A program made the position numbers and the translations under genes. The notes beneath the pieces are model-generated. The model was not told where the DNA came from, ran no database searches, and was given only the letters and a program-made list of their open reading frames with translations. From Eledone cirrhosa (taxonomy: Eukaryota), in NCBI GenBank assembly GCA_964016885.1, contig OZ024740.1, positions 383,842,001 to 383,906,000 of the forward strand: a stretch of DNA of 64,000 nucleotides. Reading direction: 5' to 3'. Positions 1 to 52,117 of this stretch are shown piece after piece; within the stretch, counting starts at the first letter, position 1, and each line of letters opens with the position of its first letter.

Positions 1-892
1 TTGATGTTTAACTGTACATGTAATGTATTTCATGCACACACACACACACACACACACACACGCACACACACACACATATATATATATATATATATATATA
101 TATATATATATATATATATATATATGTGTGTGTGAATGTGTCTGTGTATGTATGTGTACGTGTGTATGAATATAGGTGCGTAGGTGTGTGTGTGTATGCC
201 TTCTTCTAAGGTAACAAAAATGTCAAAGTGCGCACAAAACTAGTACATCGATCGATATATGCAAATATTCTCACACAATGAATACGATATATGAAAAACA
301 TGCTTCCATAACTAAATATGCGTCGATGTAACAATGTGGTTTTTCTGCGTGTGTATGTGAGCATGTATGTGGGTTGGTGTGTTAGTATGTCTCATTACAA
401 GTGAATGTCGTTCTGTATAGATGTATTTCTCTTTGTTTGATTCTGTGAAAACAAATCTAGTGAATAAAACACAGGTCAAGCATGTACATATAAACACATA
501 TAATATTCATTCTTACTTAACCTTTGTTATTCAGTTACTTCGAGCACATCGGGTGTTATTCTTGGCAGGCGTTTCAATATATGCGTATAAGCACATACAT
601 ATGTACATACACAACCACACACACACACACACACACGCGCAAAAACACAAAGACAAGCGCACACACACACAAAGGCAAGCACACACAGGCACACACACAT
701 AGCAAGATAGATATCTAGATAAAGAGGAAGAAGTGTGGGAGCCGGGAAATGCTAGATCGATACAGTAGTATATAATCATATATTATTTGTAAATTTGCAT
801 GTGAATGCATAACATTCTAAAAACTGCTACTCTTACAAAATGCCTGTCAGTATATATACATATATATATATATATAGATAGGAACGAGTAGG

Positions 893-988
893 ACCCCGAC
901 GGCTGAGCTCAAGCCATTTCGACGGCTAATTCTGGACTAAATGAACATTTTTATCCTGGTATATGAATAGCCGAGCTTCTCAGGGGGT
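893..988 (-). ncRNA. Degenerate type I hammerhead in PLE1 pLTR (other copies 4487-4582 minus, 5795-5890 plus)
   Basis: ACCCC-CTGAGAA-[g..cggctattc...gaattagccgtc]-GAAA-tggcttgagctcagccg-TC-GGGGT; stems I-III pair but the core departs from CUGANGA in all three copies. Confidence 0.6.
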
Positions 989-2067
989 AATTCCATATAT
1001 GGTAAAAGTGATTGTCACAAGGATTGGTCAAAAGTTTGTTGTTGAGACACATAATTCTATCATGGCAATTTGGGGTCGGAAGGGTAGCTGAACCTGCCAG
1101 TAGAAGAAAGATGAAGAGGGGGTGGGGGTAACCCAGTCGTGCGTTGATAGTGCCAACTACAGCAGGGCAGGAGGTCAAGGAAGCATACTAGGGAGGGGGA
1201 GGGGGAGGAAGCCGAAACAATAAGTAAAACAATATGGGGTAAATATATAGAAAAATACCGAGAATGTTAAAAAAACAATTAAATATAAAAAACAATTTCT
1301 GGTTACTATTCCCTAAGGACAGCCATCAAGTATCTCACTGGTACTGCTAAACTATAGAAAGGTTTACTAGGTGGGACAAAATTATAATGAGACCCTTTTA
1401 AGAGGTTGTAGTAACCAACCGTGTATATCTTACAGTGACGGGTCAACAAGTGGGGGGCCAAAATACTAAAGAAACTACCACGAAATAATAATTCAGAGTC
1501 CCGAGACTAATACGAAATAATTGTTTCTACCCTAGGCACAAGGCCAGCAACCACCCAGTGCAAAAAAATAAACTAATACGAAATAATTATTCAGAATCCC
1601 GAAAAATAATACTAATACTATCTCTAAGGGTGCCGCTACGATACAAAAATTTTAGTGCAAACTACATAAATGCTCGTACGAAATATATGAAAAATTTGAT
1701 ACGGAAAATCAATTCAGACCCCCACACACACAAAACAAATAAATACTGATATACGAGAAATTAAAGCAAAGATACCACTAAGAAATGTAGAACGCACGAA
1801 AAAGGGGCAGCCATCGGATAAGAAAGGAAGTATCCGGGGTCTATCACATCTGCTATAAAAAGCGGAGTCGGCCAATTCTATCATAGAATAGGGGAAGGGG
1901 GTGGGGGTACTGAGGCTACAAAGGACCGAGGGGCTGCCTCGGGTGGGTGAGAAAGTGAAAAGGACGACGACAAAGAAAGAGGACTGTAGTAGAAGGACGA
2001 GGAAGGGATGGGGGAAAGAAGGAAATATAGAGGAAGCGATAAAAAGATATAAAAGAAGATCTTACGT

Positions 2068-49509: not shown

Positions 49510-51250
49510 TATATATATGTATATACACATATATATATGTATATATATACATATATATATGTATATACATATATATATGTATATACATATATATATGTAT
49601 ATATATATAAATGTATATACATATATATATGTATATACATATATATATGTATATATATATATATATATACATATATATATGTATATACATATATATATGT
49701 ATATATATATATATATATATATATATATATATATATATGTATATATATATATATATGTATATATATATATATGTATATATATATATATATATATATGTAT
49801 ATATATATATATATATATATATATGTATATATATATATATATATATATATATATGTATATATATATATATATATATGTATATATATATATATATATATAT
49901 ATATATATATATATATATGTATATATATATATATATATATATATATATATATGTATATATATATATATATATATATATATATATATATATGTATATATAT
50001 ATATATATATATATATATATATATGTATATATATATATATATATATATATATATATATATATATATATATATATATATATATGTATATATATATATATAT
50101 ATATATATGTATATATATATATATAATATATATATATATATATATATATATATATGTTTATATATATATATATATATATATATATATATATATATTTATA
50201 TATATATATATATATATATATATATATATATATTTATATATATATATATATATATATATATATATATATATATATGTATATATATATATATATATATGTA
50301 TATATATGTATATATATATATATATATATATATATGTATATATATGTATATATATATATATATATATATATATGTATATATATATATATATATATGTATA
50401 TATATGTATATACATACATATATATATATATATGTATATACATACATATATATATATACATATGTATATACATACATATATATATATATATGTATATACA
50501 TACATATATATATATATATATATATATATGTATATACATATATATATATATATATGTATATACATATATATATATATATATATGTATATACATATATATA
50601 TATATATATATATATATATGTATATACATATATATATATATATATGTATATACATATATATATATATATATATGTATATACATATATATATATATATATA
50701 TATATGTATATACATACATATATATATATATGTATATACATACATATATATATATATGTATATACATACATATATATATATATGTATATACATACATATA
50801 TATATATATATGTATATACATACATATATATATATATGTATATACTTACATATATATATATATATGTATATACATACATATATATATATATATGTATATA
50901 CATACATATATATATATATATGTATATACATACATATATATATATATGTATATACATACATATATATATATATATATATATACATGTATATACATACATA
51001 TATATATGTATATTCATATATATATATGTATATACATACATATATATATATGTATATACATACATATAGATATATGTATATACATACATATATATATATA
51101 TATATACATACATACATATAGATATATGTATATACATACATATATATATATATATATATATATATATATATATATTTATATATATATATATATGTATATA
51201 CAAACATATATATATATATATGTATATACATACATATATATATATATCCA
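49510..51250. repeat. Compound (TA)n/TG/CA microsatellite
   Basis: Seen directly. Confidence 0.97.
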
Positions 51251-51983
51251 CTGAATTATTTTTTAATAAGTTTCCAGTGTCCTCGCTTTGCCTGGAAACT
51301 TACATGAGAATAGACTTTCCTGGCGACGGAATGCTTCTGTATATTATTCTTCGGAAAATATATTTACTCCATTCCAGAAACTAATTAGTTGGAAGTGATA
51401 TTTTAGTAAGTTAATTTTATAATTTTCTTATTTTACGTCTCTTTTATGTATATATATATATGTATATACATATACATATGTACATACATACATACATATA
51501 TATATATATATATATATATATATATATATATATATATATATATATATATATATGTATATACATACATATATATATATATATATATATATATATATATATA
51601 TATATATACATACACATATATATATATATATAAGGGTTAAAATAATGGAGCGTGTTGGAGTTAAACACCCTCTTCTTATTATAGAAATGACAGTAAAAGG
51701 TATAGCTCAATGTAGTTAAACAGAGCCGAACAATTAAATTGTCGGCTAATAAAGACTTTTGATGTATTGAAGGCTTCTTTGTTTTACTCTCTTAATTATA
51801 TATATATATATATAAATATGTATATATATATGTATATACATATATATATGTATATACATACATACATAAAAATATATATATATATATATATAGTAATAAT
51901 AATAAATTTGAAGACTAAAATCCAAAGAGGGCTCGATAAGTATGAATATATATCAAATATATAAAAACCCTAGATCAAATATT

Positions 51984-52117
51984 TATTAAAATAAGAGATT
52001 AAATTTTAAGTAAAGAATCGATGCTTTCACCCTTAACGGGATCTTCTGAGTTTCAGAAGATCCCGTTAAGGGTGAAAGCAGCGATTTTTGCTTAAACTTT
52101 AATCTGTTATTTTAATA
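51984..52117. repeat. Short palindrome with HHR-like CAGAAGA..GAAA core (single arm also at 12544-12613)
   Basis: Arms 51984-52049 and 52053-52117. Confidence 0.75.

Follow-up and report, generated by a model that had tools for sequence, protein, structure and literature searches.

We analysed a 64,000-nucleotide stretch of the genome of Eledone cirrhosa (contig OZ024740.1 of assembly GCA_964016885.1, positions 383,842,001 to 383,906,000), hereafter called the window, and read it as a nest of insertions of at least seven Penelope-like elements (PLEs) of the Hydra clade, each with its own open reading frame (ORF) and a hammerhead ribozyme in its terminal repeat, plus two ORF-less hammerhead tandem repeats, i.e. 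retrozymes. We hold the identity of these parts with high confidence. The best overall explanation, to which we give a probability of roughly 60%, is that the nested PLE and retrozyme insertions arose by double nicking of a TA repeat and double priming on one RNA. The parts list is ordinary Hydra-clade and retrozyme biology, and Hydra-clade hammerheads and TA targeting are already published; what is added here is quantified end pairing, arm geometry and array patterns that bear on the question of mechanism.

Families are referred to by letters, with the names from an earlier note on this DNA in brackets: A (8662), B (the 422-bp repeat), C (the 310-bp repeat), D (39996), E (40593), G (893), H (8946), I (16780), J (32860) and K (52054); P2 denotes the pseudo-long terminal repeat (pLTR) of the element PLE2. 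The 3.0-Gb genome was searched, and individual loci (L-numbers, e.g. L164) were extracted for the families. Overlapping loci were merged into 245 stretches (918 kb) holding 681 classed family matches, of which 274 stop at a short 3' end (S), 263 at a long 3' end (L) and 18 elsewhere; a further 122 run through and 4 lie at an edge. Ten of the 11 families have both S and L at fixed positions, separated by 34–139 nt and lying on the 3' side of the predicted cut of the ribozyme; for J, which like K is represented by only 10 short stretches, only the S end was seen. The tail between S and L measures 97 nt in A and D, 98 in E, 78 in G, 93 in K, 88 in I, 70 in H, 62 in B, 34 in C and 139 in P2. Compared with shuffled sequences only the tail of A folds better (z −2.7), and a stem-loop common to the family tails was looked for and not found. 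The distance from the cut to S is about 50–59 nt in A, D, E, I and P2 and about 20 nt in G, K and H. In G, D, A and PLE2 the long end directly precedes a common TA...GCUCC motif located upstream of the ORF (window position 4389; L164, L169, L180).

The two ends are distributed over head-to-head insertions by a nearly strict rule. We collected 159 same-family head-to-head pairs, one segmental duplicate having been dropped, of which 148 have both ends at S or L. One S is combined with one L in 141 of these, two S ends occur in 7 and two L ends never (binomial p 1.6e-33 against 0.5). Edge or partial-tail miscalls seem to account for at least four of the S+S exceptions. The same pairing is seen when pairs with long internal TA are filtered out (134/140), among incidental pairs, i.e. 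those in loci extracted for other families (43/46), and in the retrozymes (11/11 for B, 4/5 for C). All 25 H loci are inverted pairs, the query itself being one. Assembly artefacts or hairpin duplications after insertion, to which TA runs and palindromes are both prone, would copy the same end into both arms, yet the arms end differently in 141 of 148 pairs and differ by 0.7–10%; we reject an assembly artefact and consider this whole class of explanation scarcely credible. Pairing of RNAs of different families in one event was likewise rejected: there are 11 mixed-family head-to-head candidates, only one with fewer than 10 TA units between the arms.

In LINE-1 twin priming both target strands prime on one RNA, and the inverted 5' part is joined by microhomology. 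By analogy we consider twin priming on one RNA somewhat probable here, with the difference that the second priming site is opportunistic in LINE-1 and would be fixed here if the model holds, and that the arms here often overlap. The enzyme would cut both strands and begin reverse transcription at S and L, as published for another PLE. In a single event one nicked strand would prime at L and the other at S of the same RNA, and the two complementary DNAs (cDNAs) would join via short palindromic microhomology into a head-to-head insertion that ends in S on one side and in L on the other; extension of only one cDNA would give a plain 5'-truncated copy. For arrays the template would be a single unit, circularised by ribozyme cutting and subsequent ligation and copied repeatedly. 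The 422- and 310-bp retrozymes would borrow the PLE machinery from a driver. A stricter version is offered tentatively: twin priming may be programmed, with one complex of reverse transcriptase (RT) and endonuclease nicking both strands of palindromic (TA)n and starting at two hard-wired sites of a ribozyme-circularised RNA, and with retrozymes carrying both sites and moving likewise. If true, this process would lengthen TA microsatellites across a 3-Gb genome with some 10^5 to 10^6 such insertions.

Several points weigh against double priming on one RNA, and they are given in this and the next three paragraphs beside the alternatives they touch. Loci were picked by best identity, which favours young copies, and some pairs with long internal TA may be two separate insertions. 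We compared minor alleles between the arms of one insertion at non-CpG sites variable among loci, A and C being uninformative. In E, G, I and K 50 alleles were shared and 6 discordant, with cross-locus shares of 0.27, 0.08, 0.06 and 0.50, respectively (K on 6 events). D, B and H show less sharing, with 27, 12 and 19 shared against 14, 19 and 68 discordant alleles, respectively, though still above the cross-locus shares of 0.20, 0.06 and 0.12; over all families 108 shared and 108 discordant alleles stand against about 32 and about 239 expected. Two RNAs from one source locus, perhaps joined by their palindromic stem III and priming one strand each, at S and L, would share alleles too, and the discordant alleles in D, B and H, the self-complementary stem III words and the pairing within families all suit them. 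This alternative must explain why equal RNAs never yield L+L (0/148) and why alleles in E, G, I and K are so highly shared though many loci could be sources. Moreover, of 75 L arms, 12 terminate at −4 to +17 relative to S, and the interval from −23 to −5 holds no such stop, a pattern that is no more than a hint of a block by a second complex on a common template. We judge two RNAs to be quite unlikely.

Junctions were resolvable in 77 of the 141 S+L pairs (37 others lie past the reference, 22 have gaps of more than 40 nt and 5 are long tandems). The L arm consists of tail only in 15, and the S arm extends more than 15 nt further 5' in 19. In these 34 the S arm holds sequence missing from the L arm, and snap-back of an L-primed cDNA therefore cannot produce them. 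The remaining junctions are symmetric within 15 nt (32) or have the longer L arm (11), and they are explained by snap-back too. Here the cDNA would fold at a palindrome and copy itself, and the endonuclease would trim one end to S; the folding molecule might also be an antisense template, as proposed for inverted PLE copies in PMC3846280. Junction overlap is mostly 0–7 nt, often within small palindromes, and palindromic junctions with 1–7 nt of overlap are what self-priming would leave, as are alleles common to both arms. As the 34 asymmetric junctions would require extra deletion steps, we regard self-priming as unlikely and twin priming as the better account of the arms.

Of 537 family 3' ends, 413 have a (TA)5 run beginning no more than 4 nt away, as have 140 of 192 ends of incidental copies. 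The background is 4.6% in a sample of the genome (20 stretches of 1.8 kb, evenly spaced) and 10.0% across the window itself; a control repeat resembling a short interspersed element (SINE) has (TA)5 at 5/60 and 12/96 of its two ends. The TA adjacency noticed earlier is thus borne out genome-wide, and TA runs as landing sites are supported; such targeting is a published Hydra-clade trait (PMC8557442) and no novelty of this lineage. Runs of (TA)5 or longer make up 12.8% of the window versus 5.7% of the 20 random stretches. To the left of the A core, the (TA)9 at 8389–8406 is internal to the element and present in nearly all of the 30 copies shown. Inverted insertions have (TA)5 on both flanks in 100 of 148 cases; unpaired copies have it at the 5' flank in 38 of 191, a noisy figure with imperfect 5' mapping. 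The difference between 77% of 3' ends and about 20% of unpaired 5' flanks would be expected if TA runs were largely written by a telomerase-like RT through start-site stutter, or grown after insertion, rather than being pre-existing targets. Our search for empty sites gave 10 candidate events among 269 examined, one of them clean: TA runs are short in related copies that lack the insertion, whereas the filled site has runs of about 16 and more than 25 units. The growth agrees with TA as a product, yet a short run was already there, TA stands on both sides of most inverted insertions and the clade is known to target it, which makes this explanation doubtful as a whole. Some TA may be made at or after insertion, and short TA targets lengthening during or after insertion appear to fit best.

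The predicted cut is crossed intact. Only 4 of 332 mapped 5' ends (3 of 170 in incidental copies) fall in the 10-nt bin at the cut, so a peak of 5' truncations at the ribozyme cut was rejected, and the template must have been uncut or re-ligated. In 10 of 11 multi-unit C arrays variants are fixed in all units, four across both arms, and only one partly shared variant was seen; in the window array one variant is fixed across all 5 scored units. Among three PLE2 ORFs in tandem the differences amount to 0 and 2 bases; compared with the window copy they amount to 14. Judging from these patterns, we give even odds to a circular template, with each array copied from a single unit, as proposed for retrozymes in the form of rolling synthesis (PMC7229834). 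The older B arrays contain many single-unit and partly shared variants and no clean array-wide pattern, and gene conversion inside arrays can be a rival source of homogeneity. In work on another PLE ribozyme cleavage was unnecessary for insertion in vitro, and the primer had no homology to the start site (PMC11167929).

The earlier note had proposed that one driver of PLE2 type moves a set of unrelated passengers. Of the ten families other than PLE2, six (A, D, E, G, I and K) are instead, on sequence grounds, the pLTRs of six other Hydra-clade PLEs with RT/GIY-YIG ORFs of their own, and are not short ORF-less units. We located these ORFs for A in L161–L164, for D in L169, for E in L173 and L176, for K in L164 and L269, for I in L240/L241, and for G in the window copy and in L186, L187, L191, L199, L200 and L202. 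In 20 longer stretches the layout around the ORFs of A, D, E and K is inverted pLTR, pLTR, ORF, untranslated region (UTR), pLTR, or a 5'-truncated version of it. G lies about 1.15 kb past the ORF end in six further loci, besides the broken window ORF, and I about 1.4 kb past it in L240/L241. Each ribozyme therefore travels with its own enzyme. The ORF proteins are 38–55% identical among families and 45–48% to PLE2. The RT tree groups E with I (support 99) and G with K (support 100), and hammerhead kinship and end geometry match these groups: E and I have hammerhead sequence in common, and G and K share a long stem III, a cut-to-short-end distance of about 20 nt and odd cores. The core and stem II of H are similar to those of the 310-bp retrozyme. 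Parent ORFs of H and J were looked for in the extracted loci and not found.

These results also bear on whether PLE2-type proteins mobilise all these hammerhead RNAs in trans. The window contains no intact ORF apart from that of PLE2, which is very young, with 40/40 scored copies 99–100% identical over 960 bp and an open 813-aa ORF in 10/10 extracted loci. The young 310-bp arrays require an active driver, and the sampled ORFs of the other families are broken, so that late cross-mobilisation is possible. Set against six families with ORFs of their own, a hammerhead kinship that follows the RT tree, a PLE2 tail unlike those of B or C and the rarity of mixed-family joints, mobilisation by PLE2 appears improbable, and evidence tying the retrozymes, H or J to it was not found. 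Mobilisation of Penelope type as such, which had also been proposed, is supported: the retrozymes show two fixed ends, S+L inverted arrays and TA flanks.

The PLE2 ORF, described earlier as intact, is indeed open across 813 aa. It is a single ORF with RT and C-terminal GIY-YIG, and an N-terminal endonuclease is absent. Y694, Y707, G709, R718, E777 and N790 are conserved among homologues; cysteines and histidines are found in the linker (C673-C675-C681), at C771-C774 and at C799-H801. The RWR position is K in 47 and R in 33 of 89 homologues, and DKT stands in place of DKG. C696 and C705 lie inside the GIY-YIG core without conservation in homologues, i.e. CCHH is not conserved. This motif set fits the Hydra clade as defined in PMC8557442. 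Both a Pfam search and a PDB sequence search with the protein were without match; the nearest Atlas clusters point weakly to Cnidaria and Ctenophora. Among RNA runs none was listed as containing 42084–45000, the stretch around the PLE2 ORF, a result that speaks neither for nor against expression. Inverted and direct arms of PLE2 differ by 2 mismatches and 5 gaps over 1.3 kb. In the 3' pLTR the predicted cut falls after 48774, the short site near 48833 and the long end at 48972. An Asn/Thr/His-rich insert lies between RT and endonuclease (PLE2 linker 43990–44350, also L164 and L169); it differs from family to family, is absent from G and K, and recalls the N-rich inserts of PMC3846280.

The hammerhead cores claimed for the window were found, type I cores lying on the plus strand at 8667, 34489, 34913, 35334, 37497, 37807, 40001, 40600 and 48639 and on the minus strand at 34142, 36250, 36560, 36870, 37180, 40457 and 40970. 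A strict type I descriptor gave 15 matches, compared with a mean of 0.12 and a maximum of 2 in 100 block-wise dinucleotide shuffles; it missed the core at 8667, where stem I is bulged yet folds. An Rfam search of the window showed no hammerhead among the matches listed (150 of 407), which were microRNA-like chance matches. The stem III words are fully or nearly self-complementary, as had been claimed: antiparallel self-pairing covers 6/7 positions in A, 6/6 in B and C, 8/8 in D and E/I, 10/10 in P2, 12/16 in H, 14/19 in G, 14/17 in K and 4/4 in J. CUGANGA, GAAA, NUH and three helices are present at family level in A, B, C, D, E, H, I, J and PLE2. Five families had been called degenerate. For H, I and J this is true of the damaged window copies (GAAA of I is short by one base) but not of the families, most copies of which have a normal core: CUGAUGA in 39/56 copies of H and 48/52 of I, CUGAAGA in 10/13 of J. 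G and K have fixed non-canonical cores instead of decayed ones, CUGAGAA in 32/38 and CAGAAGA in 29/31 copies, with helices kept; as read, they depart from the canonical type I core C3 U4 G5 A6 N7 G8 A9. The G motif is present where it had been seen, but on the minus strand and with a long stem II. A TA-ended repeat at 7413 (−) and 22329 (−), with 13 matches in 8 merged loci, has GAAA upstream of CUGAUGA and a hairpin between them, resembling a permuted or half-core hammerhead; a stem II partner was looked for in this repeat and not found.

Among the window families only the 422- and 310-bp repeats are, by their sequence features, retrozymes, in agreement with their earlier description. They are ORF-less tandem units within the 150–450-bp range, with measured periods of 421 and 310 bp and a type I hammerhead in each unit. 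B at 33903–35639 is probably two insertions. PLE ORF pieces near B loci come from several different families. Chimeric joints sought as a pointer to the driver comprise one between the 422-bp repeat and K (L087) and one to a PLE2-like subfamily (L093/L296), the latter with two long ends, unlike the S+L pattern. At L087 1786, in L274 and at L093 1157–1161 the 422-bp retrozyme is joined without TA to K-family 3'UTR or PLE2-like ORF, and such TA-less joints are possible template switches that could point to the driver. A 318-bp sister of the 310-bp retrozyme (L115–L120, L127, L128) has the end region in common with it but carries another hammerhead, whose core reads UUGAUAA (U3-A8 swap); its two-end behaviour is the same.

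Table 1. Features of the window (strand "." where no single strand applies).
Feature	Position	Strand	Details
PLE1, family G (893), broken Hydra-clade element	879..5982	-	short-ended 3' pLTR 879-1214; ORF 4277-2156 with frameshift; upstream of it, pLTR 4389-4807; inverted arm, long end 5982
PLE1 hammerhead	888-985	-	long stem II, fixed core CUGAGAA, GUC triplet
Family A (8662), 5'-truncated 3'UTR and pLTR of Hydra-clade PLE	7520..8754	+	core 8667, short end 8754
Family H (8946), small head-to-head insertion	8879..9085	.	long end left; window copy damaged
Family K pLTR copy	12546..12712	-	short end; additional to the earlier list
Family I (16780), head-to-head pLTR insertion	16738..17155	.	short left, long right; own Hydra-clade PLE
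Rearranged remnant of 422-bp retrozyme	22966..23518	.	
Family J (32860), minimal PLE-type hammerhead	32779..33080	-	family core CUGAAGA, stem III ACGU, GUC triplet; window copy mutated
Family B, 421-422-bp retrozyme	33903..35639	.	33903-34295 inverted, short end; TA run; 2.8 direct units, long end
Family C, 310-bp retrozyme	36088..38003	.	3.8 minus-strand and 2.4 plus-strand units head-to-head; short end left, long right
Family D (39996), head-to-head pLTR pair	39781..40193	.	short left, long right; core 40001
Family E (40593), head-to-head pLTR pair	40260..40691	.	long left, short right; cores 40457 (-), 40600 (+)
PLE2, whole element	40776-48972		inverted arm, partial pLTR, ORF, 3.7-kb 3'UTR, pLTR
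PLE2 inverted arm with short end	40776..42083	-	hammerhead core 40970
PLE2 ORF, 813 aa	42541..44982	+	RWR, DKT, YRDD, Asn/Thr-rich linker, CxCx5C, C-terminal GIY-YIG with CxxC, CxH
PLE2 3' pLTR	48629..48972	+	hammerhead core 48639, ~120-nt stem II, stem III AACGAUCGUU
Family K (52054), head-to-head pLTR pair	51893..52115	.	long left, short right; core CAGAAGA, CUU triplet

Family copies beyond those of the earlier note lie at 4389–4807, 5572–5982, 12546–12712, 13560, 22966–23250, 33681–33890 and 49154. At 32779–33890 J (minus) and a G-subfamily copy (plus) meet head-to-head near 33100 without a TA run, as a chimera or a nested insertion. L165/L166 are a segmental duplication about 14 kb apart with identical nested J, I, A and G insertions. 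Pieces of a second PLE type with a CxxCxxC-like linker, which we take to be Neptune-like, lie at 55358–55739 (−) and in L132/L177. A 267-bp near-perfect palindrome (96.6%) at 25810–26076 is bounded by TA and has no visible hammerhead core; it is possibly another inverted insertion. At 5997–7208 an inverted and tandem 290-bp repeat, TA-ended and with a head like transfer RNA (Rfam tRNA 6689–6753, 38 bits), is SINE-like with a PLE-like layout. The region 9083–10629 holds inverted segments (9497–9749 and 10377–10629) and a 430-bp direct repeat adjoining a 1.9-kb TA-rich array.

A first look at the genome gave 2370 candidates for P2, 1504 for A, 521 for B, 17 for C, 200 for D, 1105 for E, 1505 for G, 2570 for H, 868 for I, 1235 for J and 968 for K. 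These counts are lower bounds, since a C array absent from the C search surfaced in the random sample. Termini of named families occur in 5 of the 20 random stretches, and a sixth stretch lies inside the PLE2 ORF. A complete hammerhead is present in 3 of 20, which suggests about 0.25 million such loci genome-wide (95% range 0.05–0.73 million, from a rough sample).

The genome thus offers hundreds of natural products with mapped ends that follow the near-strict rule of one short and one long end. With an intact young enzyme and a simple palindromic target, the twin-priming and circle models are directly testable. For animal retrozymes the insertion signature provides evidence, beyond homology, of movement by PLE machinery.

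In titles and abstract openings, which covered few subscription papers, we found neither an assignment of two start sites to both ends of one PLE insertion nor the S/L signature in retrozymes. The origin of tandem and inverted PLE insertions and of the microsatellite preference is named as open in PMC8557442 and PMC11167929. Insertion into (TA)n and a hammerhead in the pLTR are published for the Hydra clade (Craig et al. 2021; PMC8557442), which further shares with our elements a single ORF, C-terminal GIY-YIG, RW[KR], DKT, CxCx5C, CxxC and CxH motifs, the lack of CCHH, partial tandems, an inverted 5' copy and a one-end tail. The tail at only one end of inverted copies was noted qualitatively there and in PMC3846280. 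The units found here differ in length, at about 3.5–6.6 kb with long microsatellite-rich 3'UTRs as against mostly less than 3 kb, which is a tendency in PMC8557442 and not diagnostic; in their tails (70–139 nt against 30–40 bp); and in the long stem II of PLE2 and G, the two fixed non-canonical cores and the very high copy number.

The PAc element (Poseidon, Anolis; Frangieh et al. 2024; PMC11167929) likewise has two internal RT start sites defining a tail, cutting and extension of both strands, an AT-rich target and no ends at the hammerhead cut. It belongs to a different clade, and start sites here lie at or beside TA in the element and upstream of the ORF; in the accessible text of that paper the two sites are not assigned to the two ends of one insertion, and inverted copies are left unexplained. 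PLE hammerheads described by Cervera and de la Pena (2014; PMC4209133) have the palindromic helix III or loop 3, the dimer architecture, the U3-A8 variant and opposite-strand pairs 100–700 bp apart; most families here differ from them in a 4–7-bp stem I and canonical-size folds, only J being of the minimal type. Non-LTR retrozymes (Cervera and de la Pena 2020, PMC7229834; Li et al. 2026, preprint 10.64898/2026.07.22.740005) are also ORF-less tandem repeats with type I hammerheads and a short palindromic stem III, for which origin from and mobilisation by PLEs have been proposed. The retrozymes described here are set apart by variants fixed throughout an array and by the PLE insertion signature as such, namely two fixed ends, TA flanks and inverted arrays with one S and one L end.

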